The translations under genes were made by a program, and so were the position numbers. Shown here one piece after another: positions 24,654-64,000 of a DNA stretch of 64,000 nt; the first letter of the stretch is position 1, and each line of letters begins with the position of its first letter. The notes under the pieces were generated by a model. It saw only the letters and a list, made by a program, of their open reading frames with translations. It had not been told where the DNA came from and did no database searches. This DNA comes from Acidimicrobiia bacterium (GTDB lineage: Bacteria > Actinomycetota > Acidimicrobiia > Spongiisociales > UBA5794), in assembly GCA_041393965.1 (NCBI GenBank), contig JAWKJB010000002.1, positions 339-64,338 on the forward strand, read 5' to 3'.

Positions 24654-24673
24654 GCGTCTATCGATCGGCGTCT

Positions 24674-42739: not shown

Positions 42740-43150
42740 TCACTCCGGAGTTGACCCCGAGTGCGGAACGATGCGGAAGATCGGGTGGTCCGCCGGATCG
42801 GGCAATGCTTCCCACTGACGCCTTGTCGGGCGGTCCCACTTCTGCCGGTACGCGGTGATGAGGTCAGGCTTGTCGGCCGTGTCGAGCTCGACGAGCATGA
42901 TGGGTTCGACCGAGCGACGCCTCTTCAGCTGCGCCCTCCCAGCAGCCCGGACATTGCGAACCCAATCGGTTTCCCCTCGGGGCGCGACGAGGTATCGCTC
43001 ACCTTTGTGGTGAAGGACATTGATCGGGATCTCCTGGGGGTTGCCACTCGTGCGGCCCTCGACCACGAGCACCGGATTCCCGAAGAGCCGTGTGAGTCGG
43101 TTGCCGACCTCCCTGAGAATCCAGGGTGGCGGGATGTACGCGCGGGCCAT
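42740..43150 (-). CDS. Nitroreductase-family deazaflavin(F420)-dependent oxidoreductase (DUF385)
   Basis: GRTSGNPQEIPINV...GERYLVAPRGETDWVRN pattern of the DUF385/FDR-A family. Confidence 0.7.
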   Translation of the reverse strand: MARAYIPPPWILREVGNRLTRLFGNPVLVVEGRTSGNPQEIPINVLHHKGERYLVAPRGETDWVRNVRAAGRAQLKRRRSVEPIMLVELDTADKPDLITAYRQKWDRPTRRQWEALPDPADHPIFRIVPHSGSTPE

Positions 43151-43217: not shown

Positions 43218-43886
43218 CTACGAGCGGCGCAGCGCGTACGCGACCGCTTCGGCTCTTGAGTGCACGCCGAGCTTGTTCAGGATGTGCTGGATGTGGTTCC
43301 GCACGGTTGCCTGGGAGAGAAACAGCCTCTCCGCGATCGTCGGCCCGTCGAGGCCTTCGGTGAGCAGCTCGAGGACTTCTCGTTCGCGGGGGGTCAGGAC
43401 ATCGAGTCGTTCATCCGTCTTCTCGGTTCCCAGGGTCCATCCATCGAGGCGGTCGACGATGAGACGCTCGAGCTCGGGGGGAAGCGAGATCTCACGGATC
43501 AGATGCACCATCCGGCACTCATCGCGCATCTCGATCGGCGGAATGATCGTCGATGCGCTCAGCCACAGGGTCCGGTCCTTCGACGATCGGCCGAGCACCT
43601 CCCGAGGTCCCATGATCTCGTCGGGATCCCCGAGCTCGGCGGCGGGGCAGTTGGGACCGCAGACGGCGTCGCCGCATCGGTCTCGCCAACAGAGGATCTC
43701 CGCGCACGGTCGTCCGAGCGCTTCTTCCGCGGTGTAGCCGAGGAGGGAGCTCGCGGCGTCGTTCCACGCGATGATCTCGAGGGAGCCGTCCATGGCGACC
43801 ATCGCGTCACCGGTTCGACCGAGGACATCGAGCATTCCGGCGAGGTCTTCACTCACCGTGCTGTCGATGGAAGTCGTTGAAGCCAT
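43218..43886 (-). CDS. PAS-domain LuxR-family transcriptional regulator
   Basis: N-terminal PAS; C-terminal LuxR HTH (LTPREREVLELLTEGLDGPTIAERLFLSQATVRNHI). Confidence 0.8.
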   Translation of the reverse strand: MASTTSIDSTVSEDLAGMLDVLGRTGDAMVAMDGSLEIIAWNDAASSLLGYTAEEALGRPCAEILCWRDRCGDAVCGPNCPAAELGDPDEIMGPREVLGRSSKDRTLWLSASTIIPPIEMRDECRMVHLIREISLPPELERLIVDRLDGWTLGTEKTDERLDVLTPREREVLELLTEGLDGPTIAERLFLSQATVRNHIQHILNKLGVHSRAEAVAYALRRS

Positions 43887-43923: not shown

Positions 43924-44442
43924 TCAAGCGTACCGGGGGTCGTTCACCCCCGACGACGAACGCAGCACCTGGAGAATCCCGCCTGCCGCGAGGATCTCGC
44001 GCATCTCGTCCGGGAGCCGGTCCCCGGTGAGGGTCTCCCCACTCGTCGTGTTGGCGACCGCACCATCGGCGAGGTCGACGGTGATGCGGTCGCCGTCGTC
44101 GAAGGTGTCGTGGACACCCCTGCAGACAACAACCGGGAGCCCGAGGGCGATGGCGTTGCGCATGAAGATGCGTGCGAACGACTCGGCGACGACGCATGAG
44201 ACCCCGAGTGCTTTGAGGTTCTCGGCAGCGGTCTCCCGGCTCGAGCCGCATCCGAAGTTCGTTCCGGCGACAACGACATCGCCGGGCTCGACACCCGATG
44301 CGAATGCCGGGTTGACCGATTCGAGGACATGAAGCTTGCGGACCTCGACCGGGTCGACGGCGTACTGACCCGGTGAAAGAACATCCGTGCTGATGTCGCT
44401 TCCGAACTTCCAGACCCGACCGGAGATTGGAGCGTCAGCCAT
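43924..44442 (-). CDS. LeuD-like small subunit of an aconitase-family (3-isopropylmalate dehydratase-type) hydro-lyase
   Basis: GRVWKFGSDISTDVLSPGQY...FGCGSSRE motifs; overlaps the large-subunit gene by 8 nt. Confidence 0.75.
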   Translation of the reverse strand: MADAPISGRVWKFGSDISTDVLSPGQYAVDPVEVRKLHVLESVNPAFASGVEPGDVVVAGTNFGCGSSRETAAENLKALGVSCVVAESFARIFMRNAIALGLPVVVCRGVHDTFDDGDRITVDLADGAVANTTSGETLTGDRLPDEMREILAAGGILQVLRSSSGVNDPRYA

Positions 44443-45706
44443 CGTTGACCTCCATGTCGCGAGGGTCGACGATGTGGCCCGCAACGGCGGCTGCTGCGAC
44501 GGTGACCGGTGAGGCGAGGAAGATCTCGGCCTGCGCACTGCCCATCCTTCCAGGGAAGTTGCGGTTGTGGGTTCCGATGCATCGTTCGCCGGGTCCGAGG
44601 AGGCCGCCGTGGCCGCCGAAGCACGGCCCACAACCGGGCGCGAGCACCGTGGCTCCTGCCGCCATCAGCTTGCTCATGGCCCCCGACTCCATGGCTTTGG
44701 AGACAACCATCCGTGAGGCGGGGGAGACGATCAACCGCACACCGTTCGCGACCTGTTTTCCTTCGAGGAACTCCGCGGCGGCTTCGAGGTCTTCGATCCT
44801 GCCGTTGGTGCACGACCCGATGAATGCCTGGTGGATCTCGATCCCGGCTGCCTCGGTGATGTCGGTGACATGATCGACCTCGTTCGGAAGGGCGACCTGT
44901 GGGGGGAGATCCGTGAGGTTGATCTCGTGGATCGCCTCATAGTTCGCGTCGAGATCGGCGGAGAAGGGATCACAGCCGGTTCCGTTCGCCTCGATGAGGT
45001 ACTTGTCCGTGATGTCGTCAGCGGCGAAGAGACCGAACTTTGCTCCCACCTCGACAGCCATGTTCGCCACAGTGAGGCGGGAAGCCATGTCGGCGTCCTT
45101 GACGGCCGGCCCGCCGAACTCCATCGCCTTGTACTGGGCGACATCGGATCCGAACCGTCCAGCGATGTGGAGGATGACATCTTTCCAGGTGACGCATCGC
45201 TGGAGGTCACCGAACATCTCGAACCGAATCGTCTCTGGCACCCGGAACCACAGCCGGCCGGTTGCGAGCGTGTACACCATCTCGGAGGTTCCGATCCCGG
45301 TCCCGCCGGCGCCGAGCGCGCCGTAGGTCGTCGAGTGCGAGTCGGTTCCCACCACGAGCATGCCGGGGCGAATGTGACCGTTTTCGGGGAGAAGCTGATG
45401 ACAGATGCCGGAGCCCGAGTCGTAGAAGGTCTCGATGCCGAGGCGTTTCACATGGGCCCGGATGCGCTGATGCAGTTCGGCCGCTTCCGCGGTCGGGGCA
45501 GGAACCAGGTGGTCTACCACGACAGCGACCTTGCTCGGGTCGAAGGCACCTTCCGGGTGGACATCGTCCAAGATGTCGAACACTCGGGCGGCGAAGATGT
45601 CGTGGAGCAGTGCAAGGTCGATGTCCCCCACGACGAACTCGCCGGCGGACACCGAATCGGCGCCTGAGGCTCGTGCGAGGATCTTCTCTGCGAGGGTCAT
45701 ACCCAT
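44435..45706 (-). CDS. LeuC-like large subunit of an aconitase-family hydro-lyase
   Basis: MTLAEKIL start; Fe-S cysteines in GSCTNGR and PGCGPCFG contexts. Confidence 0.8.
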   Translation of the reverse strand: MGMTLAEKILARASGADSVSAGEFVVGDIDLALLHDIFAARVFDILDDVHPEGAFDPSKVAVVVDHLVPAPTAEAAELHQRIRAHVKRLGIETFYDSGSGICHQLLPENGHIRPGMLVVGTDSHSTTYGALGAGGTGIGTSEMVYTLATGRLWFRVPETIRFEMFGDLQRCVTWKDVILHIAGRFGSDVAQYKAMEFGGPAVKDADMASRLTVANMAVEVGAKFGLFAADDITDKYLIEANGTGCDPFSADLDANYEAIHEINLTDLPPQVALPNEVDHVTDITEAAGIEIHQAFIGSCTNGRIEDLEAAAEFLEGKQVANGVRLIVSPASRMVVSKAMESGAMSKLMAAGATVLAPGCGPCFGGHGGLLGPGERCIGTHNRNFPGRMGSAQAEIFLASPVTVAAAAVAGHIVDPRDMEVNDG

Positions 45707-45829
45707 GGCATCACTCCTGTCATCGTGCTCCTGTCTGCCTGCGTTCGTCAACCCGATTCGATCAATCCGATTACCCGGTTTGCTCCCGTCAACCGGATTC
45801 GGTCGATCTGACGGACCCGGTCGGTTCGG

Positions 45830-46576
45830 TCATCCTGCTCCGAGACTACGCCCTCCACATACATAGAGGATCTGGCCGGTGACATACGACGACTCGTCTG
45901 CGGCGAGGAACAGCGCCGCGTTACCGATGTCGGCCGGTGTCCCGATCCGGCGTGCGGGGATCGTCTTGATGAGTCGCTCCTGGACATCGTCCTTCAGGCT
46001 CCGGAACAGGGGAGTGTCGACGAGGGCGGGTGCGATCACATTCGCGGTGATGCCGTACCTGGCCATCTCAAGGGCGAGGGTGCGTGTCAGGGAGATCACG
46101 GCCCCTTTGGAAGCGGCGTAGTTGGCCTGTCCAGGACCGCCGAGCCATGCGCGGGACGAGATGTTGATGATCCTGCCGTGGTTGCGGTCCATCATGTGGG
46201 GCGCGACCGCCCGACACATGAGGAATTGGGACTTGAGGTTGACCTCGATGACGGTGTCCCAGTCCTCGTCGGACATCTTCGCCAGCCATCCGTCTCGTGC
46301 CATGCCCACATTGTTGACGAGGATGTCGACGCCACCGAAGGCGTCGATGGCGGAGGCGACGAGTCCCTCGGCGCCCTCCCGCGATGCCACATTCGCCGCG
46401 TGACCGGTGGCTGTGTAGCCAGCGTTCTTGAACTCGTCGACCACTTCGTCGACCCGTTCTGATACGAGATCGTTGACGACCACCTTCGCTCCCGCCGCGG
46501 CGAGCGCCTCAGCGATCCCTTTGCCGATCCCCTGACCCGAGCCGGTGACGATCGCAACTCTGTCCTTCACATTCAC
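45830..46576 (-). CDS. SDR-family oxidoreductase (FabG-like)
   Basis: TGSGQGIG, NNVG, YAASK motifs. Confidence 0.8.
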   Translation of the reverse strand: MNVKDRVAIVTGSGQGIGKGIAEALAAAGAKVVVNDLVSERVDEVVDEFKNAGYTATGHAANVASREGAEGLVASAIDAFGGVDILVNNVGMARDGWLAKMSDEDWDTVIEVNLKSQFLMCRAVAPHMMDRNHGRIINISSRAWLGGPGQANYAASKGAVISLTRTLALEMARYGITANVIAPALVDTPLFRSLKDDVQERLIKTIPARRIGTPADIGNAALFLAADESSYVTGQILYVCGGRSLGAG

Positions 46577-46608
46577 ATTGCTTCCTTTCGTTCGACCCGT
46601 ACCCAGGG

Positions 46609-46729
46609 TTCCCGTTCAACTAAAAGGTGCGCCCTCACCCACAGAACCAGCATCAGGACCTCAGCCGTCGAACCGTCGAGTTTCTGTGGGCCACAGGTGA
46701 CATTTCAGTTGAACGGGAACCCTGGGTAC
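46609..46729. repeat. MITE-like element copy 2 (~121 bp) with near-perfect terminal inverted repeats (GTACCCAGGGTTCCCGTTCAACT...AGTTGAACGGGAACCCTGGGTAC) and an internal CCCACAGAA/TTCTGTGGG inverted pair
   Basis: Seen directly; same TIR as copy 1 at 24522; lies inside the operon between the hydratase stop and the SDR start. Confidence 0.6.
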
Positions 46730-46744
46730 GGGGAGACGCGATGG

Positions 46745-47572
46745 TTATCGGCCTTTGAATTCTGGGGATCGCTTCTCGACGAATGCTTGGATGCCTTCGT
46801 CGCGGTCTTCACTCGCTCGGAGCACGGCGTGGCTCGTCGATTCGAGCTCGAGCCCGGTTTCGAGGTCGGTTTCGGTGGCTCGGTTGATCAGTTCCTTCAC
46901 CCGGTCGTGTGAAAGCGGTGCCCGGCTCGCGATGCGCTCGGCGAGTTCCATCGTTTCGTCCATCAGGTCGTCGTCGGGGACGACCCGGTTGACGAGCCCC
47001 ATCCGGAAGGCGTCCGCAGCAGAGATGTGGTCTGCGGTGAACATGAGCTCCTTTGCGTAGCCCGGGCCGATGAGTCGCGTTGCGCGCTGGGTTCCGCCTG
47101 CACCGGGGAGGCTTCCGACCTTGGCTTCCGGGAAGCCGAGGCGTGCGCTCTCGGTTGCGATGCGGAGGTCGCAGGCGAGTGCCATCTCGAGCCCTCCGCC
47201 GAGTGCATAGCCACGGATCGCCGCGATCACCGGCACATGCAGCGATTCGAATCTGCCGAATACGCTGCGGACCAGCAGCCCGAGCGGATCATGGATCAGA
47301 CCGGCCTCGAACTTGGTTCCGCGGCTCTTGAGGTCTGCTCCGACGCAGAACGCCTTGTCTCCGGCCCCGGTGAGGACCAACGCGCGGGTGTCCGGGTCCT
47401 CTTCGATCTGGTCGAGCAGGTCGCCAATGGTTTCGAGCATCGCGACCGTCATCGCGTTGAGGGCCTTGGGTCGGTTGAGCGTCAGCACACCAACCGAACC
47501 CACGCGTTTGTAGAGCACAAGGTCCTCTTCGACCTCCTCGGTCGAGGTGTCTGCCTTTTCTTCAACGGCCAC
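46745..47572 (-). CDS. Enoyl-CoA hydratase/isomerase (crotonase) family protein
   Basis: [31 protein letters not shown] motifs. Confidence 0.85.
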
Positions 47573-48794
47573 GATTGCCTCCTACGGTCGCTTCCTTGTC
47601 TGATCCGACGACCACACCGTCTTCGATCAGTCGTGTGATCTCGGCTTCGGTGAATCCGTGACTCCCGAGCACCCTCTCGGTGTCTTCGCCCGGCACCGCA
47701 GGGGCAGGTCCGGTCCCGTCGCGAGGCGTCGCCGAGAACCGGCCCGGCAGGACCGGTGAGCGGACCTCGCCGAGCAGCGGATGGGTTGCGGTGACGATCG
47801 AACCGGACCGCTCGACATGCTCGGTGCGGGTGAGCTGGTCGTAGTCGAGGATGGGGCCGCACAGCACATCGGCCTCGTCGAGGATCTCGATCCACTCTGC
47901 GGTGGTCTTGTGCGCAAACAGCGGGCCGAGGAGGTCGTGGAGCGTTGCGCGGTCGCGGACCCGCTTGTCGTTGGTGTCGAGCCGGGGATCGTCTGCGAGT
48001 TCCGGTGCGCCGAGCGCCGTGCACAGCGCGGGCCAGCGCTTCTGGGTGTACCCGGCAACCATCACATAGCCGTCCTTGGTGGGGAATGCCTCGTTTGGGG
48101 CGGCGTAGGGGGCGGCGCTTCCGAGCCGCTTCGGCGACACACCGCTCGCGAGATACATCGACAGGGGCACAACCTGGAACGCGAGCAGCGCATCAAGGAG
48201 CGACACATCGACCCGTTGACCGGTTCCCGTGCGCTCACGCGCAAGGAGGGCAGCGAGGATTGCTTGGGAGGCAAACACGCCGCCCGCCATGTCGGCCGCG
48301 GGAACCCCAACCTTGACAGGCGGGCCGTCCTCGGTCCCGGTGACGCTCATGATGCCTCCCATGGCCTGGGCGACACCGTCGACGCCGGGACGGTCACGCC
48401 ACGGGCCCGTCTGCCCGAACGCGGAGATCGCGGCATACACGATCCGGGGGTTCGCTGCCCGCATCGCTTCGTAGCCGACACCGAGACGGTCCGCAACACC
48501 GGGACGGAAGCTCTCGAGTGCGACATCGCATTGCTGTGCGAGGCGCAGCACGATTTCGGCACCTTCGGGGTGTTTGAGGTCGACGACGATGCCCTGCTTG
48601 TTCCGGTTCATGCCGAGGTACGCAGCGGCGACACCTTCGACGAACGGTGGTCCGAGTCGGCGACCCCACTCACCCCCTGGGGGTTCGACCTTGATGACCG
48701 TTGCGCCCATGTCGCCGAGGTGCATTGCACAGGTCGGCCCTGCCGCACCCTGTGACAGATCGAGGACCGTGAAGCCTTCGAGCGCTCCGGTCAT
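47562..48794 (-). CDS. Family III CoA-transferase (CaiB/BaiF/Frc-type)
   Basis: [23 protein letters not shown]-terminal signature; 410 aa. Confidence 0.85.
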
Positions 48795-49390
48795 CGTGCG
48801 ACAGCGGCAGGTTCGGGAACCGATGCGCCACGCACCGCGAATCGGGCAAAGTCCTCAGCGATCTCGTGTGCCGTCTTGGCGCCGTCCGGCCGGTACCAGC
48901 GGATCACCGAGTTGCACATCCCGAGGATGGCCTTGACAGCGACACCAAAATCCTGGGCGACGAATTCCCCTGCCTCATAGCCCTCCTCGAGCAGCCGGCG
49001 GAAGACGGCTTCGTAGGCGTCGCGCCGGGCGAGATGTGCTGCCATGTACTCGGTGTCGAGGTAGCGGCCCTCGTCGGTGAAACAGGCAACGGCGTCGCGG
49101 TCCTCGATCGCTCCGACCGTGTGGAGGATGACCGCGAGACGGAGCCGTTCGGCGGCAGGGACATGCATGTCGGCCACATCTTCGACAAGTGGTGTCACCC
49201 GGCGAACCGTGCGTTCGATGATCTCGGACAGCAACGCCTGCTTGGAAGGGAAATGGTGATAGAGGCTGGATTTGGTGATCCCAACCGCCTCGGCGAGTTC
49301 GGACATCGAGGTACCGTTGAAGCCCTTGCGTCGGAATAGTGCGGCGCCTTCGAGGCGAATGCGGTCCCGCGTGTCGGTTCCGTGAATCAC
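48791..49390 (-). CDS. TetR/AcrR-family transcriptional regulator embedded within the catabolic operon (4-nt overlaps on both sides)
   Basis: TetR HTH (GFNGTSMSELAEAVGITKSSLYHHFPSKQAL). Confidence 0.8.
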   Translation of the reverse strand: MIHGTDTRDRIRLEGAALFRRKGFNGTSMSELAEAVGITKSSLYHHFPSKQALLSEIIERTVRRVTPLVEDVADMHVPAAERLRLAVILHTVGAIEDRDAVACFTDEGRYLDTEYMAAHLARRDAYEAVFRRLLEEGYEAGEFVAQDFGVAVKAILGMCNSVIRWYRPDGAKTAHEIAEDFARFAVRGASVPEPAAVAR

Positions 49391-49923
49391 GCCGCGGCGC
49401 CCTGCGCAAGTCGCATGCCTGCAGCGAGCGCCTCGAGGTTCTTCTTTCGGTGCTGGGGCGGAACCCGCGCAGCCACCGCCCGTTCGAGCGCCGCACCGTC
49501 GACAAGGCCGGTATGGGCCTGGAGGACACCGAGCGCAACGACGCCTGTGGCGAGTTCGCCACCGGTGACCGCCCGCGCTGTGTCGACGACGGGGAAGAAC
49601 ACGGCGGTGTCGTCCGGCTCCTCGAGGACGCAGCGGGAGTCGATGATCAGCGTGCTTCCGACCGCCAAATCCGGCTTGTACTTGTCGAGAGCCTTCTGCG
49701 ACAGCGCAACAAGCGTATCGATGCTGTCGGCGAGCGGAAACCCAACCGTGTCGGTCGCGATCACCACATCGGAACGGCTCGAACCGCCCCTTGATTGGGG
49801 TCCGTACAGCTGGCTGTGCGTCGCCCGCTTCCCGGAAAGGATCGCGGCTTCCGCAAGGATCCTGCCTGCGGTCACCACACCTTGCCCGCCCGCGCCAGCG
49901 ATCCTGATCTCATTGCGAGCCAC
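49387..49923 (-). CDS. 2-oxoacid:ferredoxin oxidoreductase gamma subunit
   Basis: GTG start with AGGAGG SD; IRIAGAGGQGVVTAG (POR gamma motif). Confidence 0.75.
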   Translation of the reverse strand: MARNEIRIAGAGGQGVVTAGRILAEAAILSGKRATHSQLYGPQSRGGSSRSDVVIATDTVGFPLADSIDTLVALSQKALDKYKPDLAVGSTLIIDSRCVLEEPDDTAVFFPVVDTARAVTGGELATGVVALGVLQAHTGLVDGAALERAVAARVPPQHRKKNLEALAAGMRLAQGAAA

Positions 49924-50785
49924 GGCCACCTCCTGCGCCTGCCCCCTGGAACACGGGACGGATCTCCTTCTTGAGCACACCGGTCTTGAGGGCGGGTGCA
50001 GGCAGATCGACCGGCACATGCTCGACGAAACGCTTGTCCGACAGCGGTCCGGCAACCCCTTCATCGCGCATGGCGATCCAGTTGAGCATCTCGGGCCCGC
50101 CCCCGATCTTGTTGTAGCGCCCGAAGTACTCGGGGCAGTCGCTCACCAACTCGATGAACGCGAACCCGGGATGGGAGAGGCCTTCCGCCATCACCTTGGT
50201 CATGGCGATCGGGTTGGCTGCGAAGACCCTCGCAACGAAGGACGCCCCTGCACCCTTGAGCAGCTCACAGGCGTCAAATCCCGGCTCGGCGTTGCCTTGG
50301 GGCGTTGTCGAAGCGATCGCCCCTTCGGGTGTGGTTGGGGCTGCCTGGCCCCCGGTCATGCCGTAGATCGAGTTGTTGAGCAGCAGCACGGTCATGTCGA
50401 TGTTGCGCCTGGCGGCATGGATGAGGTGATTGCCGCCAATCGCGAGCCCGTCACCATCGCCGGTGACGACCACCACATTGAGATCGGGACGAGCGAGCTT
50501 CAAGCCGGTCGCAAAGGCCGGGGCGCGTCCGTGTGTGCCGTGGAGCGTGCAGAAATCCACATAGCCGGCAAGCCGTGAACTGCAGCCGATCCCAGCAACC
50601 ATCGCGATCTTGTTCTGGTCGAGTTGGAGTTGGTCGACGGCTTCGAGGAATGATCGAAGCACGATGCCGTGGGCGCACCCGGGACACAGGACATGGGGCA
50701 TCGCCCACTCTCGCAAGTAGGCCTTCACATCGGTCTTCGATGCGGCCGTTGTTTCGGTTTCGGGGTGGATCCTGACATCGGTCAT
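49910..50785 (-). CDS. 2-oxoacid:ferredoxin oxidoreductase beta subunit (TPP-binding)
   Basis: CPGCAHG, GIGCSS, TGDGDGLAIGGNH motifs. Confidence 0.85.
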   Translation of the reverse strand: MTDVRIHPETETTAASKTDVKAYLREWAMPHVLCPGCAHGIVLRSFLEAVDQLQLDQNKIAMVAGIGCSSRLAGYVDFCTLHGTHGRAPAFATGLKLARPDLNVVVVTGDGDGLAIGGNHLIHAARRNIDMTVLLLNNSIYGMTGGQAAPTTPEGAIASTTPQGNAEPGFDACELLKGAGASFVARVFAANPIAMTKVMAEGLSHPGFAFIELVSDCPEYFGRYNKIGGGPEMLNWIAMRDEGVAGPLSDKRFVEHVPVDLPAPALKTGVLKKEIRPVFQGAGAGGGRGSQ

Positions 50786-51927
50786 GCGCGTCCTCCGTGG
50801 ATCTTGGTGAGCACTTCCTCGATCGCGATCGGGGTGACCGGCTCGCCTCCCGAGCGCAGGTGCGGGACGATCTCGGCCTTGCCCATCGCGGAGCGTTCGA
50901 CTTCCCCGACCAGCTGCCCGAGGTTCATCTCGGCAACGACGATCGTGTCGACTCGTTCGGCCACAGCCCTCACCTGTTCGGTTGGGAACGGCCACACGGT
51001 CAGCGGTCTGATCATGCCTGCCTTGATCCCGCGCTCGCGTGCCCGTTCGACCGCGAGCTTGGCGGAGCGTCCAACGATGCCGTAGGCGAACACGGCGATG
51101 TCGGCATCATCGAGGAGGTACTCGTCGACTTCGACGACCTCATCGAGGTGGGCATCGATCTTGTTGTGGAGCCGGCTGATGAGCGCCTCGGCAACGGCGG
51201 TGTCGTTGGTGGGGAACCCCCGGTGGTCGTGGGCGAGGCCGGTCACATGGAACCGATAGCCGTCCCCGAACGGCGACATCGCGGGGACACCATCGGGATC
51301 GGCGTCCTTGGGCCAGAACTCGTCGAGGGCCGTACCTGGTGTCACGCGGTCGACCACGGTCACCGAATCCGGGAGCTCGACGCTTTCACGGGTGTGCCCG
51401 ATGATCTCGTCGTAGAGGAGAATGACCGGTGTGCGGAAGCGCTCCGCGAGGTTGAAGGCCTTGACGGTGAGGTCGAAGACCTCCCCGACCGACGAGGGGG
51501 CAAGCACGATGGCGGGATGGTCGCCGTGGGTCCCCCACCGTGCCTGCATCACATCTCCCTGCGATGGCGAGGTTGGCATGCCCGTGCTGGGACCTCCCCG
51601 CATCACATTGACGATCACACAAGGGACCTCGGCGATCGTCGCAAACCCGACATGCTCTTGCATGAGGGAGAAGCCCGGCCCGCTCGTCGCGGTCATCGCT
51701 TTGGCACCGGCGATCGACGCACCGATGACCGCCGCGAGGGACGAGATCTCGTCCTCCATCTGCACCGAGACTCCACCGACCTCGGGCATGCGCCGCACCA
51801 TGTGCTCGGCGATCTCCGACGATGGGGTGATGGGATACCCCCCGTAGAAGGTGCAACCGGCGGCGAGGGCGCCCTTGACGCAGGCCTCGTTGCCCTGGAT
51901 GAGCTTTGCGGTTGTCGCGGTTGTCAT
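50782..51927 (-). CDS. 2-oxoacid:ferredoxin oxidoreductase alpha subunit
   Basis: LIQGNEACVKGALAAGCTFYGGYPITPSSEI N-terminus; GGGAGGA SD. Confidence 0.85.
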   Translation of the reverse strand: MTTATTAKLIQGNEACVKGALAAGCTFYGGYPITPSSEIAEHMVRRMPEVGGVSVQMEDEISSLAAVIGASIAGAKAMTATSGPGFSLMQEHVGFATIAEVPCVIVNVMRGGPSTGMPTSPSQGDVMQARWGTHGDHPAIVLAPSSVGEVFDLTVKAFNLAERFRTPVILLYDEIIGHTRESVELPDSVTVVDRVTPGTALDEFWPKDADPDGVPAMSPFGDGYRFHVTGLAHDHRGFPTNDTAVAEALISRLHNKIDAHLDEVVEVDEYLLDDADIAVFAYGIVGRSAKLAVERARERGIKAGMIRPLTVWPFPTEQVRAVAERVDTIVVAEMNLGQLVGEVERSAMGKAEIVPHLRSGGEPVTPIAIEEVLTKIHGGRA

Positions 51928-52802
51928 CGGGTGGTCCTCCCTGATGCTGCCGGCACCGGATCGGCTGTCTCCGCCGGTGGGTGGATGGTGATTGCAAAGT
52001 CGGGGCACAACATCTCGCACAGACGACACCCGGTGCAGGCATCGGCATCGACGATCAGCAGCGTGCCGTCGGTATCGAGCTTCAGGCAGTACTCGGGACA
52101 GACCCTCGGGCAGATGTCGCAGCTCTTGCACCAGTCCTGGCGGATCTCGATGAGGTGGGGTCCCGGGGCAACCTCGGGATCCGGCCCCGGGAGCGGGATC
52201 TCCGCCGACGGTGCCTGCCGCCCTGCACGGAACGCCGCAAGGTTGACCTCTTCGGTTCCTTTCGGCACGAGGCTGGTGATTGCCGCTTCCCAGTGTTCGG
52301 TGTCGATGTCGACGAAGGCAGCCACCGATCCGAGGATGACGCTGTTCGCGGCCCGCACATTGCCGAGTGCGGCGGCGTTTGCCGTTGCGTCAACGAAGCG
52401 GGATTCGAGTCTCCGGTTCTTGAACAGGTCGCCGTCGAATCGGGGATAGGCCCTCGACCAGGCCCTTGTATCGTTGCACGCTCCCGGCGGGACGATCGTC
52501 TTGAGGTCGGTGACGACGGCACCGCCGTCGCGGACATACTCGACCCATCGGATGGCTTCCGCCCATTCGAAAGCGGCAAGGACCTCGGCGCTTCCCTTCT
52601 CGACGAGCGGGCTGTCGACCTTGTCGCGTTTCCAACGGATGTGGCTCACGACGGAGCCGCCCCGTTGGGCCATGCCGTGCACCTCGCTCTGTTTGACATC
52701 GAACCCTGCTCGCATAAGCGCATCGGCGACGATCATGCTCGCGAGGATGACGCCCTGGCCCCCGACGCCTGCCAGCAAGAGGCCCTTCGCACCGTCAGCC
52801 AT
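51924..52802 (-). CDS. iorB: Indolepyruvate/2-oxoacid ferredoxin oxidoreductase beta (gamma-type) subunit fused to a C-terminal 2x[4Fe-4S] ferredoxin domain
   Basis: LLAGVGGQGVILAS (POR_C); C-terminal CKSCDICPRVCP...CTGCRLCEMLCP. Confidence 0.6.
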   Translation of the reverse strand: MADGAKGLLLAGVGGQGVILASMIVADALMRAGFDVKQSEVHGMAQRGGSVVSHIRWKRDKVDSPLVEKGSAEVLAAFEWAEAIRWVEYVRDGGAVVTDLKTIVPPGACNDTRAWSRAYPRFDGDLFKNRRLESRFVDATANAAALGNVRAANSVILGSVAAFVDIDTEHWEAAITSLVPKGTEEVNLAAFRAGRQAPSAEIPLPGPDPEVAPGPHLIEIRQDWCKSCDICPRVCPEYCLKLDTDGTLLIVDADACTGCRLCEMLCPDFAITIHPPAETADPVPAASGRTTR

Positions 52803-54606
52803 CGCCGTTCCTCCCGTTCATGTCAACCGGCACGATTGCGAGCGGTGGGCAGAGCTGTGCACACAGGGTGCAGCCCGTGCAGGTCACCGTATCGATGACC
52901 ACCTTGCGCCGTCCTTCGAACATCTCGTCGGACCACACGATCGATGGGCAACCGGCGGTCATGCACGCTTGGCACGCCGTGCAGTCCTCTGCGATCACCC
53001 GGAATGGTGTATCCCTGACTTTGATCGGGGCTTCGACACACGGGCGGTTGGTGATGACCACCGACGGGCCGACATGGGCGATCGCCCCTTCGATGGCGCC
53101 ATAGGTTGCTGCCATGTCGTAGGGGTCGATGACGCGGACATCCCGGACACCGAGGGACTTGCATAGCCCTACCAGATCGACAGGAGTCGCCTCCTGCCCT
53201 TGCAATGTGGTCCCGGTGCCCGGATGCTCCTGCCCGCCGGTCATCGCTGTTGTTCCGTTGTCCAAGATGATGACGGTGATGTTTGCATCGGCGTAGACCG
53301 CGTCGGCGAGACCCGCGATACCGCCGTGGAGGAAGGTCGAGTCACCGATGGTGGCGACGACGGGGCCTGCGGCGCCTCCCGATGCCGCGAGTCCGACCGC
53401 CATGCCGATGCTCGAGCCCATCGCGACACAGGTGTCCATTGACGACAGCGGCTCGAGCGCGGCAAGCGTGTAACACCCGATGTCGCCGGTGACGACGGCG
53501 CCGAGGCGCTTGAGGGCAAGGTACGGAGGGGTGTGCGGACAGCCGGGGCACATGAGCGGTGGCCGCGCAACCGTGCCGGGAGCTGGCTCGATCGCGAGGT
53601 ACTCGGGAAGGACTCCGGCTGCGGCAAATCCTCGCCTGACGGCATCGGGGCTGAGCTCGCCAGCCTGGGGAAAGAACTCCTTGCCTTCGACGGCGAGCCC
53701 AGCGGCGCGCAGATCGTTCTCGACGAGGGGATCGAGCTCCTCGATCACGAAGAGCCGATCGACGGTCTTTGCGAACGCTTTGATCCGTTCCATCGGGAGG
53801 GGATAGCTCATGCCGAGCTTGAGGGCCTTGGCGTCCGGGAGCACCTCACGGAGGTAGTGGTGGGCGATACCGGAGGTGACCACGCCGATCGAGGTATCCG
53901 TCCCGGATTCCTCGATCAGGGGGCTCTGGTCTGCGAATTCTTTCAGGTCCTGCAACCGCCGCAGGAGTGCCGGTCGTCGCCCTCGGGCGTGCCCAGGAAT
54001 CATGACGTACTTCTGGGGGTTACGCTCGAAGCCGGCGACCGGCCTTTCCTGGCGGTCCCTGAGTTCTACGACCCCTCGGTTGTGCGAAACCCGTGTCGTC
54101 GTGCGAACGAGAACCGGGGTGTCGTATTGCTCGGAGATCTCAAATGCGAGCGCCGTGAACCGCTTGGCTTCGGCGCTGTTTGCGGGTTCGAGGAGCGGTA
54201 CGGAGCCCATCCGGGCGTAGGCCCTCGTGTCCTGCTCGTTCTGGGAACTGTGCATGCCGGGATCGTCCGCGACGAGGATGACGAGGCCCGCCCCGACCCC
54301 CGTGTAGGCCATCGTCATGAAGGTGTCTGCGGCAACATTGAGCCCGACATGCTTCATCGTGCACAGGGTGCGGATGCCGCCGAGTGACGCGCCGAGGGCA
54401 ACATCGAGGGCGACCTTCTCGTTGGGGGACCAGCGGACCTGCATGTCGGTGCGGTTCGCGATCGATTCGAGTGTCTCGGTGCTCGGCGTTCCCGGATAGC
54501 CGACGGCCATGAGGGCCCCCGCTTCCACCGCCCCGCGGGCGATGGCCTCGTTGCCGGACAGGAGGACGGTCGTGCCCTCGTCGACACGCGTTTCGAGGGT
54601 CGTCAT
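52795..54606 (-). CDS. iorA: Indolepyruvate:ferredoxin oxidoreductase alpha subunit (fused TPP/pyrimidine-binding domains with a C-terminal 4Fe-4S)
   Basis: 603 aa; LLSGNEAIARGAVEAG N-terminus, GDIGCYT, C-terminal CTACQAC...CTGCTLCAQLCP. Confidence 0.75.
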   Translation of the reverse strand: MTTLETRVDEGTTVLLSGNEAIARGAVEAGALMAVGYPGTPSTETLESIANRTDMQVRWSPNEKVALDVALGASLGGIRTLCTMKHVGLNVAADTFMTMAYTGVGAGLVILVADDPGMHSSQNEQDTRAYARMGSVPLLEPANSAEAKRFTALAFEISEQYDTPVLVRTTTRVSHNRGVVELRDRQERPVAGFERNPQKYVMIPGHARGRRPALLRRLQDLKEFADQSPLIEESGTDTSIGVVTSGIAHHYLREVLPDAKALKLGMSYPLPMERIKAFAKTVDRLFVIEELDPLVENDLRAAGLAVEGKEFFPQAGELSPDAVRRGFAAAGVLPEYLAIEPAPGTVARPPLMCPGCPHTPPYLALKRLGAVVTGDIGCYTLAALEPLSSMDTCVAMGSSIGMAVGLAASGGAAGPVVATIGDSTFLHGGIAGLADAVYADANITVIILDNGTTAMTGGQEHPGTGTTLQGQEATPVDLVGLCKSLGVRDVRVIDPYDMAATYGAIEGAIAHVGPSVVITNRPCVEAPIKVRDTPFRVIAEDCTACQACMTAGCPSIVWSDEMFEGRRKVVIDTVTCTGCTLCAQLCPPLAIVPVDMNGRNGDG

Positions 54607-55862
54607 TGCGTGCTCCCGGCGGCGATCAGGTCAAGGATCTCGTCCTCGGCGAGGACATGGTCCGATGTCTTTGCGGCCGCGAGGATCTTGTCGACCGTCG
54701 CGTCGTCGGTCTCACGGCCCCGTTTCGTGAGCCATGCGACCGCATTGGCCCTTCCGCTCATGGGGCCGACGGTGATCTCTTGTTCCCTCCCGAGGAGGTC
54801 TGCGGGTACGCCGCTGTAGATGCGGTTGGCGAGCCATTCGTCGCCCGTACGAATGGCCTTGAGGACGGCTGCGGCGTGCACACCGGTGCTCGTCTCGAAT
54901 GCGTCACTCCCGATCGCTGGCCAGTTCTTGGGAATCGGTGTGCTGGTCGCCTTGGAGACCGCCTCACAGTAGGCGGGGAGGGTCGTGAGGTCGAGGTCGA
55001 GCCAGCCCATCAGCTTGAGGTTGACGAGCAGCATCTCCATGGGCGTGTTGCCTGCCCGTTCCCCGATGCCGATCCCGCACCCATGCACACGGTGGGCTCC
55101 CGAGGCGAGAGCCTGAATCGAGTTGATGACGGACAGGTTGCGGTCCCGGTGGCCGTGATAGTCGATCTTGATGTCTTCGCCGGTTTCGGCGACGATGTCG
55201 ACGGCGAGTTCGACGAGCGCCCGTACCCCCCATGGGGTTGCGTGGCCGACGGTGTCGGAGAGGCAGATGCGCCGTGCGCCCGCTTCGATCGCCGCGGTGT
55301 ACAGCGTGCGGAGGATCTCTGGCCTTGCCCGGGTCGTGTCCTCGGTCACATACATGACCTCGAGACCTTCCTTGCGGGCGAGATTGATGGCGTCGACGGT
55401 TGTCTTTGCGAGGAAGTCGACATCCCAGCCCTCGACGAATTGGCGGATGGGGCTCGTGCCGAGGAACAGGGAAGCTTCGATCGCGACGCCGGAGCGTTGC
55501 TGGGCCTCGGCGATGGGGAGGATGTCTGCTGGGTGGGTCCGGCCTGCACAGTTGGGCTCGATCGAGAAGCCTTCCTTGTCGATCTCTTCGGCAAGGGCGG
55601 TGACATGGTCAAGTACGGTCGCGTCGGCGCCCGGGTAGCCGAGATCGACGGCCTGGATGCCGAGGCCAGCCATGCGGTGGAGGATCTCGAGTTTCTCATC
55701 GAGGTTCGGTTGACGGACCGACGGGCTCTGGAGGCCGTCACGCAGCGTCTCGTCGTCGAGCTCCACCGTTGCAGGTGCCGGCGTGCCCTCCATGCCGACG
55801 ACATTCCAGTCGTAGAGCAGCTCCTGTTCCCGAGCGCTGGTGTCTTGCCCCATGCCCTCGCC
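54603..55862 (-). CDS. DRE-TIM metallolyase (LeuA/HMGL-like; 2-isopropylmalate/homocitrate/citramalate synthase family)
   Basis: LDDETLRDGLQ motif; HxH metal site (IDYHGHRD). Start chosen at the internal ATG 55862 preceded by a perfect AAGGAGG SD; the longer ORF N-terminus lacks an SD. Confidence 0.75.
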   Translation of the reverse strand, partial: GEGMGQDTSAREQELLYDWNVVGMEGTPAPATVELDDETLRDGLQSPSVRQPNLDEKLEILHRMAGLGIQAVDLGYPGADATVLDHVTALAEEIDKEGFSIEPNCAGRTHPADILPIAEAQQRSGVAIEASLFLGTSPIRQFVEGWDVDFLAKTTVDAINLARKEGLEVMYVTEDTTRARPEILRTLYTAAIEAGARRICLSDTVGHATPWGVRALVELAVDIVAETGEDIKIDYHGHRDRNLSVINSIQALASGAHRVHGCGIGIGERAGNTPMEMLLVNLKLMGWLDLDLTTLPAYCEAVSKATSTPIPKNWPAIGSDAFETSTGVHAAAVLKAIRTGDEWLANRIYSGVPADLLGREQEITVGPMSGRANAVAWLTKRGRETDDATVDKILAAAKTSDHVLAEDEILDLIAAGSTQ

Positions 55863-56207
55863 TCCTTTGCGTTGGATCGATCCCTCGCAGCCGTCCGGCC
55901 GGTCGGTTGACAAGGTAGTCATAGAATCCCAAGGACGGGGGCGACCGGCAATCCGCCTTTTGTATCATTTATCTGATGCATTCGCATCACGACAGTGATC
56001 GTGGTGCACAAATCACGATCCGGCAAGAGGATCCCGACGATTCGTCAGGCGACGGCCCGGACCGCAGGTAGGCTGAATGCATCACAGAAATGGGGTCGGT
56101 GGCTCATTGACGCAGCGAGGTCACGGGGAGACACTCGGGTCTGGACGACCGACCGGCCGGAAGGCAGATGCGGTTCGGCGTGCCCACGGCCACACGAAGG
56201 AGGAGCA

Positions 56208-56627
56208 TTGACGACAGCTGTGATGGGGGCATCATTCCGACCGGGGGAGCTCGAGATCCACGACGACGGCACCGGCAACCTGCTCGGCAGCCGATGCACC
56301 AACTGCGGGGCGTGCTTCTTCCCGATCCGGGAGGCCTGTGCGGGATGCCTGAGCCAGGAACTGGACACGATCCGGTTCTCGACCGAGGGGACGCTGTACA
56401 CCTATTCGATCGTACGCCAGTCGATCCCCGCGTTCGAGGTTCCGTACGCGCTCGGGTATGTGGACTTCCCTGAGGGTGTCCGCATCATGGGCCAGATCTC
56501 AGGGATAGACTTCGATGACATCGAGATCGGCATGCCGATGTCGCTCTCGCTTGAACCGTTCGGTGAGGATGCCGATGGCAACCCACTCACGGGCTACCGA
56601 TTTCGTCCCTCGGAGGTGTCTGAATGA
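56208..56627 (+). CDS. Zn-ribbon OB-fold (DUF35) protein, thiolase partner
   Basis: CTNCGACFFPIREACAGC zinc ribbon; TTG start 5 nt after the AAGGAGG SD; 4-nt overlap with the thiolase gene. Confidence 0.65.
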   Translation: MTTAVMGASFRPGELEIHDDGTGNLLGSRCTNCGACFFPIREACAGCLSQELDTIRFSTEGTLYTYSIVRQSIPAFEVPYALGYVDFPEGVRIMGQISGIDFDDIEIGMPMSLSLEPFGEDADGNPLTGYRFRPSEVSE

Positions 56628-57766
56628 CCGATGTCCACATCGTCGGGGTCGGCATGACCCGCTTCGGCAAGCATCCGGACAGCGATGCCACCGACCTCGG
56701 CTCGGCCGCGCTGCTCGAGGCAGTCGCCGACGCCGGCATCGACGCACGCCTCATCGAGTCGGCCTATGTCGGCCATGTGTTCCAGGGCATGGTGACGGGC
56801 CAGCGGATCCTCGCCCAGGTCGGCCTTGCAGGCCTTCCGCTCGTCAATGTCGAGAACGCCTGCAGCTCCGGTGCCACCGCGATCCGCGAGGCATCCCTTG
56901 CGATCCGTGCCGGTGAGAACGATGTTGTGGTGGCGGTCGGCACCGAGCACCTCACCTCGAAGTTCGGGGGAGCCCTCACCCCGGATCCAAGCGATCCGGA
57001 AGCGGCCATCGGGGCGACGATGCCGGGGATCTACGCCATGCGCGCCACCCGGTACATGGCCGATCATGGCATGACCCGCGAACAGCTCGCCCTGATCCCT
57101 GTCAAGAACAAGGCGAACGCGGCGCAGAATCCGCTCGCCCATTTCCGTACGCCGATCACGGTGGAAGATGTGCTCGAGTCGCGTCCCGTCGCCGATCCGC
57201 TCCACCTCCACGACTGCTCGCCGGTGACCGACGGCGCTGCTGCGGTGATCATGATGAGTGATGCCGCAGCAGCGAGGTACGCCAATGGGCGAGGTGTCAG
57301 GCTCGCCGCCTCGGCGCTTCGTTCCGGCTCGGTCGAGACTGAGCCAACGACGATGACCTTCGAACCGCTCACCTGGGCGACGGCGCAAGATGCCTACGAG
57401 AAGGCAGGTGTTGGCCCAGACGAGGTCGACTTCGCCGAGGTCCATGACTGCTTCTCGATCGCTGAGGTGCTGCGCGTTGAAGGCCTCGGCCTCTTCGAGC
57501 AGGGCAGCTATCCCCGAGCGGTCGAGCGTGGCGAAGCCAACATCAACGGCCGTCTGCCGGTGAACCCGAGTGGCGGCCTCATCGGCAAAGGGCACCCGCT
57601 CGGCGGCACGGGAGTGGCCCAGGTCGTCGAGCTGGTGCGTCAGCTCCGCGGGGAGGCGGGAGATCGCCAGATCGAGGGAGCCAAGGTGGGCCTCGCCCAC
57701 TGTCGGGGCGGAAAGGCAGTCGGGATCGAGGGAGCTGCGTGCACCGTTCAGATCTTGACTCGCTGA
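56624..57766 (+). CDS. SCP-x-type thiolase (thiolase-domain protein that pairs with DUF35)
   Basis: HIVGVGMTRFGKH, NVENACSSGATAI (active Cys), GGLIGKGHPLGGTG. Confidence 0.8.
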   Translation: MTDVHIVGVGMTRFGKHPDSDATDLGSAALLEAVADAGIDARLIESAYVGHVFQGMVTGQRILAQVGLAGLPLVNVENACSSGATAIREASLAIRAGENDVVVAVGTEHLTSKFGGALTPDPSDPEAAIGATMPGIYAMRATRYMADHGMTREQLALIPVKNKANAAQNPLAHFRTPITVEDVLESRPVADPLHLHDCSPVTDGAAAVIMMSDAAAARYANGRGVRLAASALRSGSVETEPTTMTFEPLTWATAQDAYEKAGVGPDEVDFAEVHDCFSIAEVLRVEGLGLFEQGSYPRAVERGEANINGRLPVNPSGGLIGKGHPLGGTGVAQVVELVRQLRGEAGDRQIEGAKVGLAHCRGGKAVGIEGAACTVQILTR

Positions 57767-63839: not shown

Positions 63840-64000
63840 GTGACACTCATCAACCATGAATTGGCTCCCGACCATGTGTACTCCGAGATCCTCTACGAGG
63901 AGCGTCCGATCCACGACCAGGACGGGAACGAGGTCGACGGCTTGCACGCTGTGTGGATCACGCTGAACAACCCGAAGCAACTGAACTCATATACGACCGC
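63840..64000 (+). CDS. Enoyl-CoA hydratase/isomerase family protein (5' part; continues past the window end)
   Basis: GTG start; ITLNNPKQLNS crotonase-fold N-terminus. Confidence 0.6.
   Translation, partial: MTLINHELAPDHVYSEILYEERPIHDQDGNEVDGLHAVWITLNNPKQLNSYTT

Follow-up and report, generated by a model that had tools for sequence, protein, structure and literature searches.

The window analysed here, a stretch of 64,000 nucleotides (nt) with a GC content of ~64% from an uncultured Acidimicrobiia bacterium of the UBA5794 lineage (contig JAWKJB010000002.1), raises the question why a minus-strand operon of twelve genes should bring together a LeuA-like condensing enzyme, a LeuCD-like dehydratase, two 2-oxoacid:ferredoxin oxidoreductases (OFORs), a CoA-transferase, a crotonase (enoyl-CoA hydratase) and a short-chain dehydrogenase/reductase (SDR). 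The original prediction had offered two alternatives for this operon, either 2-oxoacid chain elongation or shortening, or anaerobic catabolism of aromatic or branched-chain amino acids delivering CoA esters to a divergent operon. Judged by enzyme families and synteny, these alternatives look like one pathway rather than a choice, and the twelve genes are interpreted here as the putative arm for the peripheral pathway within a conserved island of anaerobic benzoyl-CoA metabolism. It is highly probable that the operon belongs to such an island; the specific route via 2-benzylmalate and phenylitaconate is put forward tentatively, with slightly less than even confidence.

Domains were called with Pfam and NCBIfam profiles, start codons were picked by ribosome-binding site (RBS), and all twelve minus-strand genes were confirmed with the domains originally named for them:

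54603-55853, minus strand: LeuA-like DRE-TIM acyl-CoA:2-oxoacid condensing enzyme (416 aa, Pfam HMGL-like)
52795-54606, minus strand: IorA, alpha subunit of an indolepyruvate/arylpyruvate:ferredoxin oxidoreductase (IOR), with a C-terminal 2x[4Fe-4S] domain (TIGR03336 equivalog cutoff passed)
51924-52802, minus strand: IorB fused to a 2x[4Fe-4S] domain (POR domain and Fer4/OorD/PorD models)
50782-51927, minus strand: second OFOR, alpha subunit (NF006412 passed)
49910-50785, minus strand: second OFOR, beta subunit, thiamine-pyrophosphate-binding (best NCBIfam match 2-oxoglutarate:ferredoxin oxidoreductase beta)
49387-49923, minus strand: second OFOR, gamma subunit (POR domain and NF006323; 178 aa, as in relatives)
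48791-49390, minus strand: TetR-family regulator inside the operon (TetR_N and TetR_C_24; position conserved in relatives)
47562-48794, minus strand: family-III CoA-transferase of the succinyl-CoA:dicarboxylate type (NCBIfam and PDB matches)
46745-47572, minus strand: crotonase (Pfam ECH_1)
45830-46576, minus strand: BbsD-like SDR (best PDB match BbsD 7pcs_B)
44435-45706, minus strand: LeuC-like aconitase-family large subunit (NF001614 and TIGR01343 subfamily cutoffs passed)
43924-44442, minus strand: LeuD/DmdB-like small subunit with a shortened specificity loop (TIGR02087 passed)

The first codon of the operon is the ATG of the LeuA-like gene at 55853, in agreement with an identical 416-aa database protein, and not position 55862, where the 5' end had been placed. 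Consecutive genes overlap by 4, 8, 4, 4, 14, 4, 4 and 11 nt from the LeuA-like gene through the crotonase gene, the first of these being the overlap of the IorA ATG with the LeuA-like stop codon, and the LeuC- and LeuD-like genes overlap by 8 nt. Of the predicted run of eleven overlapping genes with one gap, the overlap lengths of 4-14 nt thus hold, and the count becomes nine overlapping junctions and two gaps.

The evidence for the aromatic context comes largely from the plus-strand genes that face this operon:

56208-56627, plus strand: DUF35/BbsA-like thiolase partner, 139 aa (zf-ChsH2 and OB_ChsH2_C; start TTG 56208)
56624-57766, plus strand: SCP-x-type thiolase, BbsB-like (best PDB match 7pxp_C)
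57739-58914, plus strand: PrpF-superfamily delta-isomerase of the 3-methylitaconate isomerase (Mii) type (3g7k match, 350 bits)
58911-59393, plus strand: molybdenum (Mo) hydroxylase gamma subunit, 4-hydroxybenzoyl-CoA reductase (Hcr) type (NCBIfam Hcr gamma 193.5 bits)
59393-61777, plus strand: Mo-hydroxylase alpha subunit, Hcr type (NCBIfam Hcr alpha 881.6 bits)
61774-62769, plus strand: Mo-hydroxylase beta subunit, Hcr type (NCBIfam Hcr beta 252 bits)
62766-63824, plus strand: Had, 6-hydroxycyclohex-1-ene-1-carbonyl-CoA dehydrogenase (TIGR03201 passed)
63846-63998, plus strand: N-terminus of Oah, a 6-oxocyclohex-1-ene-1-carbonyl-CoA hydrolase homologue, ending at the window edge

Had, a Zn-dehydrogenase, reached 458 bits on TIGR03201 against a cutoff of 338.65. 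Oah begins in the final ~150 nt of the window, and the encoded N-terminus shares 71% identity with residues 9-59 of its counterpart in a related locus (L005), a protein that itself passed TIGR03200 (566.6 against a cutoff of 464). All three subunits of the Mo enzyme scored best on the Hcr models, each just under its cutoff, with 882 bits for the alpha subunit compared to 538 for the next family, and 187 bits for the FAD (beta) subunit against Hcr compared to 102 against nicotinate dehydrogenase. Moreover, the FAD subunit keeps an inserted loop in which four cysteines align with C122, C138, C146 and C155 of HcrB, which in the numbering of the Thauera protein we take to be the [4Fe-4S] ligands. 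Since the window ends inside the Oah homologue, the island extends past it, and in relatives Dch and BcrCBAD-like genes follow; their best NCBIfam matches are Dch and BcrC/B/A/D, with Dch below cutoff (202.5 against 292.5) and the Bcr subunits below their equivalog cutoffs. The anaerobic aromatic context is accordingly drawn from Had passing its cutoff, the Hcr-type Mo enzyme, the start of Oah and the Dch/Bcr-like genes in relatives. The benzoyl-CoA core of Thauera aromatica (HcrCAB, BcrCBAD, Dch-Had-Oah, KorAB and ferredoxin) is similar in that Hcr-like, Had and Oah proteins are encoded in the window, Dch and BcrCBAD-like proteins in relatives, and an Oor/Kor-like OFOR alongside; it differs in that the island belongs to another phylum and to uncultured organisms, its Hcr and Bcr subunits stay below the equivalog cutoffs and the OFOR delta domain is carried by IorB.

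In a scan of species-representative genomes at least 591 LeuA-like loci were detected, and 85 retrieved loci (numbered with the prefix L) were searched by tblastn with all window proteins. Many relatives of the LeuA-like protein are 70-82% identical. The arrangement is kept in ~15 species-level genomes, mostly metagenome-assembled genomes of Acidimicrobiia or other Actinomycetota, in the order [BcrCBAD-like]-Dch-Oah-Had-(HcrBAC)-Mii-like-thiolase-DUF35 facing LeuA-IorA-IorB-ferredoxin-OFOR-TetR-CoA-transferase-crotonase-SDR-LeuC-LeuD. Because the same order recurs in these ~15 genomes, the arrangement is far from chance. The neighbourhood comparison bears out a conserved order, and the key partner, the Mii-like isomerase, turned out to lie outside the operon as it had been delimited; neither it nor the Bbs-like thiolase had been named originally, and the two together suggest how the components connect. 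Variants lack Hcr (L008, L009), have the Ior/OFOR block detached from the block of LeuA to CoA-transferase (L002, L017, L018) or additionally encode a Liv-type ABC transporter and a PaaK-like ligase (L004, L006, L014). The ligases in relatives have phenylacetate-CoA ligase as best NCBIfam match, and in seven loci, which belong to several phyla, PaaK-like ligase genes adjoin those for the LeuA-like and IorAB proteins; the window itself holds no ligase gene. The translational coupling of the LeuA-like gene to iorA is conserved across phyla. A reduced cluster, LeuCD-(PaaK)-LeuA-IorA-IorB-ferredoxin-OFOR-TetR, is found in L024 (Ca. Thermofontivivens) and in L026 and L031 (Armatimonadota), where the loci retain PAS-LuxR, hemerythrin, LeuCD, LeuA, IorAB, OFOR and TetR genes.

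Based on enzyme families and synteny, we propose that an arylpyruvate (phenylpyruvate or 4-hydroxyphenylpyruvate) would be obtained by transamination of phenylalanine or tyrosine, or from IorAB operating between arylacetyl-CoA and arylpyruvate, and would be condensed with acetyl-CoA by the LeuA-like enzyme to 2-benzylmalate, which the LeuCD-like dehydratase would convert to 2-benzylmaleate. The Mii-like isomerase of the divergent operon would then yield (E)-phenylitaconate by the 1,3-shift with which Mii itself interconverts dimethylmaleate and methylitaconate. Subsequently, the family-III CoA-transferase would form phenylitaconyl-CoA with succinyl-CoA as donor, the crotonase would hydrate it, the BbsD-like SDR would oxidise the product to benzoylsuccinyl-CoA and the BbsAB-like thiolase would release benzoyl-CoA and succinyl-CoA, with benzoyl-CoA entering the Bcr/Dch/Had/Oah steps. 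Tyrosine-type substrates would give 4-hydroxybenzoyl-CoA, to be dehydroxylated by the adjacent Hcr-type Mo enzyme. Such a route would need neither a glycyl-radical enzyme nor an acyl-CoA dehydrogenase nor a LeuB-type dehydrogenase, and it would explain why BbsG, Bss and LeuB genes are not present, why the Mii-like gene shares an operon with the thiolase gene, and why the LeuA-like gene is translationally coupled to iorA and repeatedly placed beside PaaK-like ligases.

The first step depends on the specificity of the LeuA-like enzyme, which lacks the LeuA regulatory domain. It scored below the NCBIfam cutoffs of all LeuA, NifV and CimA models, with 178 against 517 for isopropylmalate synthase (IPMS), 173 against 463 for NifV and 104 against 450 for CimA, and its best PDB match reached 117 bits; by these scores it is distant from all characterised synthases. 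The best PDB match is to a homocitrate synthase (HCS), an identity that was considered and rejected: in alignment with the S. acidocaldarius HCS (6ktq), the His and Arg holding the distal carboxylate of 2-oxoglutarate are replaced by Ala103 and Met167. For the benzylmalate synthase HphA five pocket positions have been listed, of which a small gatekeeper was found decisive for aromatic substrates (PMC12961565, 2026, Table 1). Transferred via pairwise alignments, with the IPMS Leu and the HCS His as anchors for the gatekeeper, these positions read as follows:

Ala103: Ala (Ala73) in HphA, His in HCS, Leu in IPMS
Met167: Asp in HphA, Arg in HCS, Glu in IPMS
Val169: Ala in HphA, Thr in HCS, Ser in IPMS
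Cys197: Met in HphA, Ser in HCS, Asn in IPMS
His257: Ser in HphA, His in HCS, Glu in IPMS

Ala103 matches the HphA gatekeeper, and 82 family members carry it without exception; at the remaining four positions the residues are not those of HphA. The pocket is thus predicted to be uncharged, devoid of the homocitrate synthase determinants and provided with a small gatekeeper as in HphA, and we infer that the enzyme may be a 2-benzylmalate synthase. This short LeuA clade, in which Ala serves as gatekeeper, is itself uncharacterised. Within it, proteins linked to the cluster (from three phyla) carry Y73, G104 and Q118, the positions held by L, A and S in stand-alone homologues, and in a comparison of the two groups ~11 alignment columns separate them. 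G104 lies directly beside the gatekeeper Ala103. The divergence that would speak for neofunctionalisation of the clade is therefore modest, though one separating column neighbours the gatekeeper. The LeuD-like subunit differs as well: its specificity loop reads SPGxYA--V(D/E)P in cluster-linked proteins as compared to IPGRYCH(I/L)TDP in stand-alone ones, being two residues shorter and without the Arg.

These signatures bear on whether LeuA and LeuCD merely serve ordinary leucine, isoleucine or lysine biosynthesis beside catabolic genes. Stand-alone homologues from Acidobacteriota and Chloroflexi, 55-58% identical and with heterogeneous neighbours, would favour this: a gene for an isocitrate/isopropylmalate dehydrogenase (Iso_dh) adjoins ten of them, and three form LeuA-LeuC-LeuD-Iso_dh operons (loci in or near such operons include L038, L039, L045 and L066). 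By contrast, none of the cluster-linked loci has a LeuB-type/Iso_dh gene within 10 kb, which together with the scores below the LeuA, CimA and NifV cutoffs, the missing regulatory domain and homocitrate synthase determinants, the conserved coupling to iorA and the distinct cluster-linked LeuA and LeuD signatures makes ordinary biosynthesis very improbable. The same missing dehydrogenase counts against classical chain elongation, one half of what had been predicted. An alternative is a one-carbon homologation with subsequent ordinary beta-oxidation, in which the LeuA- and LeuCD-like enzymes, with an unlinked LeuB-type dehydrogenase, extend phenylpyruvate to 2-oxo-4-phenylbutyrate, the second OFOR forms 3-phenylpropionyl-CoA, and crotonase, SDR and thiolase give benzoyl-CoA and acetyl-CoA. 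Each OFOR would then have its own role, there is precedent for phenylpyruvate elongation in HphA, HphCD and HphB (PMC12961565), and L024 has acyl-CoA dehydrogenase and crotonase genes beside LeuC, together with PaaK-LeuA-IorAB-OFOR. However, besides the lack of an Iso_dh gene near cluster-linked loci, acyl-CoA dehydrogenase is missing from the window, nothing would be left to do for the dicarboxylate-type CoA-transferase and the Mii-like isomerase, and the nearest matches of the thiolase and SDR are enzymes acting on succinyl-branched substrates, so that homologation is considered improbable here. L024, which carries acyl-CoA dehydrogenase, crotonase and AMP-ligase genes instead of Mii- and Bbs-like ones, may use a different downstream route. 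The homophenylalanine pathway of Nostoc (HphA/HphCD/HphB) and the LeuABCD-type 2-oxoacid elongation from which it is derived resemble the island in the acetyl-CoA:2-oxoacid condensing enzyme followed by a two-subunit aconitase-family dehydratase, and in the Ala gatekeeper, and differ from it in that the island lacks the beta-decarboxylating dehydrogenase, stands in a catabolic context and would leave the sequence at the maleate intermediate.

This exit would be provided by the PrpF-like protein, which is 51% identical to Mii of Eubacterium barkeri (3g7k, 350 bits, compared to 199 bits for PrpF) and conserves a Lys and a Cys at the positions of Mii Lys62 and Cys96, presumably the catalytic residues. 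The late nicotinate pathway of E. barkeri (Mii, DmdAB, Dml) is alike in placing a Mii-type isomerase next to a LeuCD/DmdAB-type hydro-lyase acting on itaconate, maleate and malate analogues. For the island the reverse direction is proposed (malate to maleate to itaconate type), its C-C enzyme is a LeuA-like synthase and not a PEP-mutase-family lyase, and upstream nicotinate genes are missing. A fermentation of nicotinate-type N-heterocycles as in E. barkeri, by Mo-hydroxylase, methylitaconate isomerase, dimethylmalate dehydratase and lyase, would account for the joint presence of the Mii-like protein, a LeuD/DmdB-family dehydratase and a Mo enzyme of the XDH family. It is rejected on the Mo enzyme, which is Hcr-like with the reductase-specific [4Fe-4S] loop; only the Mii-like and DmdAB-like members of that cluster are present, enamidase, 6-hydroxynicotinate reductase, the B12-dependent 2-methyleneglutarate mutase and a PEP-mutase-type lyase were not found among the window proteins scanned with Pfam and NCBIfam, and Had and Oah point to benzoyl-CoA. 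This explanation therefore carries next to no weight.

For the last four steps of the proposed route the closest parallel is the beta-oxidation of benzylsuccinate in toluene-degrading anaerobes like Thauera and Geobacter (BbsEF, BbsG, BbsH, BbsCD, BbsAB). Both systems pair an SCP-x thiolase with a DUF35 protein and comprise a family-III CoA-transferase, a crotonase and an SDR; the steps and products proposed, benzoyl-CoA and succinyl-CoA, are identical, and BbsB and BbsD are the best solved relatives of the thiolase and SDR. The thiolase matched the benzoylsuccinyl-CoA thiolase BbsB (7pxp_C) with 289 bits (next 231), and the SDR aligned over its full length with BbsD (7pcs_B) at 265.5 bits compared to 215 for FabG, suggesting a role as 2-[hydroxy(phenyl)methyl]succinyl-CoA dehydrogenase. 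The adjacent thiolase and DUF35 genes score far below the NCBIfam cutoffs (317 against 750 for BbsB and 79.5 against 250 for BbsA), with BbsA as the sole NCBIfam match of the DUF35 protein. The longest open reading frame (ORF), 55995-56627, overstates the DUF35 gene, the TTG at 56208 standing just after an RBS, GAAGGAGGAG; this start position is conserved in relatives, and L015 has an ATG there. The island differs from the Bbs system in having one SDR gene and one CoA-transferase gene where Bbs has heteromeric pairs: no BbsC-like partner of the SDR was found, and the CoA-transferase scored 143 bits for BbsF and 125 for BbsE, its best matches being succinate-glutarate, SUGCT (267 bits) and mesaconate CoA-transferases. 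A function as phenylitaconate CoA-transferase is proposed for it. The PDB matches of the crotonase are generic crotonases, and BbsH was not matched among its solved-structure or top NCBIfam hits.

Entry into the two systems would also differ, proceeding in the island at phenylitaconate via LeuA/LeuCD/Mii-type chemistry and in the Bbs system by fumarate addition followed by dehydrogenation. Glycyl-radical and Acyl-CoA_dh domains were detected neither among the window proteins scanned (Pfam/NCBIfam) nor among the calls for L002, L004 and L005. This speaks against toluene or cresol degradation via benzylsuccinate, to which the BbsA/B/D-like proteins would otherwise point, and bbsA together with bcr genes in UBA5794 Acidimicrobiia has indeed been read as toluene degradation (PMC12008989). 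The window and the flanking regions in relatives yielded neither benzylsuccinate synthase (Bss) nor a BbsG-type dehydrogenase, and the single CoA-transferase is closer to SUGCT than to BbsEF; the toluene pathway was rejected on these grounds and its probability is regarded as negligible.

The two oxidoreductases are of different kinds. IorA passed TIGR03336 (663 bits against 650.9), and IorB stayed below its cutoffs (193 against 237 and 138 against 206). A ferredoxin domain is added to IorB, residues 14-196 forming the POR domain and 220-273 matching the Fer4, OorD and PorD models; this fusion is kept in >120 protein clusters of ~290 aa. The alpha subunit of the second OFOR passed the generic NF006412 (564.8 against 411), the next family being 2-oxoglutarate synthase alpha at 429 against a cutoff of 579, and the beta subunit reached 271 bits against 364 for 2-oxoglutarate:ferredoxin oxidoreductase beta. 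The Oor order delta-alpha-beta-gamma is matched, but with the delta-type ferredoxin domain fused to IorB. By sequence the second OFOR is therefore classed as Oor/Kor-like, below the 2-oxoglutarate-specific cutoffs. The OFOR subunits are not of the Pad type, with 98, 30 and 31 bits for PadG, PadI and PadE against cutoffs of 700, 700 and 300. The phenylalanine/phenylacetate pathway of Thauera and Aromatoleum, with the phenylacetyl-CoA:acceptor oxidoreductase PadBCD and the phenylglyoxylate oxidoreductase PadEFGHI, fulfils the same task, the anoxic benzylic CH2 oxidation of a C6-C2/C3 acid to benzoyl-CoA, and involves an OFOR-type enzyme. In the island the DMSO-reductase-type PadBCD is missing, and water would be added by the crotonase after C2 extension.

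In the proposed route IorAB would catalyse either the reductive carboxylation of arylacetyl-CoA to arylpyruvate, a direction known for IOR in methanogens, or the simple oxidation of arylpyruvate, and the Oor-like OFOR would oxidise a 2-oxoacid, probably 2-oxoglutarate, to succinyl-CoA and provide low-potential electrons for IorAB and the reductases. IOR with an aryl-acid CoA ligase in methanogens and rumen anaerobes is comparable, since IorAB genes stand beside PaaK-like ligase genes in relatives of the island and IorAB may run in the carboxylating direction; it differs in that the product would feed a catabolic condensing enzyme and not amino-acid synthesis. A further step would be a redox-neutral variant, in which 2-oxoglutarate oxidation drives arylacetyl-CoA carboxylation via the IorB-fused ferredoxin linking both OFORs and also supplies the CoA donor, as a route widespread in uncultured Acidimicrobiia that leads to (4-hydroxy)benzoyl-CoA and succinyl-CoA without O2 or a glycyl radical; this extension is doubtful. 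The combination of LeuA/LeuCD-type chemistry with 2-oxoacid:ferredoxin oxidoreductases that had been predicted is itself supported, and so is the tie of anaerobic aromatic catabolism to the divergent operon, by Had, the Hcr-type Mo enzyme and the BbsB-, BbsD- and Mii-like proteins; for a role in branched-chain amino acid degradation no specific support was obtained.

Alternatively, the genes might form separate co-regulated modules, with IorAB and the OFOR oxidising amino-acid-derived 2-oxoacids and reducing ferredoxin for the benzoyl-CoA and 4-hydroxybenzoyl-CoA reductases, the CoA-transferase, crotonase, SDR and thiolase processing ring-cleavage products (3-hydroxypimelyl-CoA, glutarate), and the LeuA-, LeuCD- and Mii-like enzymes acting on some other dicarboxylate. 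In Thauera the benzoyl-CoA genes come with those for a 2-oxoglutarate:ferredoxin oxidoreductase, the best NCBIfam match of the CoA-transferase is succinate-glutarate CoA-transferase, and the detached Ior/OFOR block in L002, L017 and L018 would be expected from such modules. However, three tightly conserved specialised enzymes would then be given no function, the LeuA-like gene is translationally coupled to iorA and the Mii-like gene is co-operonic with the thiolase gene, and thiolases of the DUF35 type are typical of alpha-branched or bulky substrates and not of 3-oxopimelyl-CoA. This arrangement is thus unlikely, though less so than homologation.

Several observations weigh against the benzylmalate-phenylitaconate route itself. 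The LeuA-like family is very conserved, and since stand-alone copies sharing the Ala gatekeeper sit in classical LeuA-LeuCD-Iso_dh operons, the clade may have an ordinary substrate. In the Armatimonadota and Thermofontivivens clusters, the stretch seen lacks both Mii-like and Bbs-like genes. BbsD leads FabG (265 against 215) and BbsB leads other SCP-x thiolases (289 against 231) by modest margins, none of the Bbs matches reaches its NCBIfam equivalog cutoff, and the crotonase is generic. The CoA-transferase is not BbsEF-like, and its top NCBIfam family would equally fit glutarate from the lower pathway. Finally, the roles and directions given to IorAB and the second OFOR are guesses.

The island is bounded and possibly controlled by the following elements:

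42169-42720, plus strand: hemerythrin-domain protein (Pfam Hemerythrin)
43218-43886, minus strand: PAS-LuxR regulator (PAS and GerE)
46596-46732: inverted-repeat element of 137 nt resembling a miniature inverted-repeat transposable element (MITE), with arms of 51 nt that are 82% complementary
55854-56207: divergent control region of 354 nt with conserved palindromes

The control region contains the near-palindrome ACCGACCGGCCGGACGG as an inverted pair, 55891-55907 and 56148-56164, one near each operon start, and the palindrome TGATGCATTCGCATCA at 55974-55989. Seven relatives conserve both motifs, which within the window were found only in the control region. The TetR protein probably binds the paired palindromes, and it is plausible that the palindromes are candidate operators for the operon's TetR and the PAS-LuxR protein. 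Homologues of PAS-LuxR adjoin the cluster in L015, L022 and L031 and the hemerythrin gene does so in L002, L017 and L031, so that one or both accompany the cluster in other phyla too (L031, L002, L017, L022); this flanking suggests sensing of O2 or redox state. A small ORF similar to F420H2-quinone reductase (42740-43150) lies between the two genes. Because the rest of the window (1-42 kb) holds only unrelated housekeeping or miscellaneous genes and no further pathway genes according to Pfam and NCBIfam scans, the island is taken to begin near 42.2 kb. Among these unrelated genes, one for a baeRF family 3 (bacterial aeRF1-like) protein (31258-32385) stands beside an opposite-strand ORF of 967 aa (28569-31472) without a Pfam match.

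Within the operon, the crotonase-SDR gap of 168 nt contains the MITE-like element, which corresponds to the terminal-inverted-repeat element reported originally; the SDR-LeuC gap of ~123 nt is ~100 nt longer than in relatives, and the corresponding gaps in relatives measure about 20-46 nt, with 22-46 nt for the crotonase-SDR gap. By appearance both gaps look like local insertions. A second MITE-like copy lies at 24519-24655, and both copies have long terminal inverted repeats beginning (C/G)CGTACCCAGGGTTCCCGTTCAAC; the copy in the operon has a weak terminator-like stem on the operon strand. In the SDR-LeuC gap (45746-45803, minus strand) two direct copies of GA(C/T)CGAATC(C/G)GGTTGACG with 40-nt spacing could be left over from an insertion, or they could act as an internal promoter or operator. 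Scans for consensus promoters and terminators gave nothing above the shuffled expectation, with which both a single transcript and three units are compatible. No Rfam match was found at 42-64 kb.

Every enzyme family and the benzoyl-CoA core are already known. In the searchable literature, which mostly leaves out subscription journals and is thus weak evidence of absence, LeuA/LeuCD/Mii chemistry feeding Bbs-type beta-oxidation together with an IorB-ferredoxin fusion that connects two OFOR gene sets was not found, nor was anything relevant on benzylmalate or phenylitaconate with benzoyl-CoA or phenylpyruvate, or on the combination of IOR, PaaK and benzoyl-CoA; in the literature searched, the route is indeed not a textbook pathway, as had been stated. 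Outside well-studied Proteobacteria, little is known of how anaerobes feed phenylalanine, tyrosine and aryl-acetates into the benzoyl-CoA pathway, and to our knowledge the unreactive benzylic CH2 has one established solution, the molybdenum enzyme PadBCD. The proposed route, if true, would be a second, mechanistically different solution, in which a C2 unit is added, water is removed, the double bond is shifted, water is added again and the product is cleaved, built from recruited enzymes of the leucine, nicotinate and toluene pathways and located in abundant uncultured Actinomycetota of sediment and groundwater. It would also provide new enzymes for biocatalysis, namely a benzylmalate synthase and a benzylmaleate isomerase, and would correct a misreading, as metagenomic surveys treat bbsA-like genes as markers of toluene degradation.

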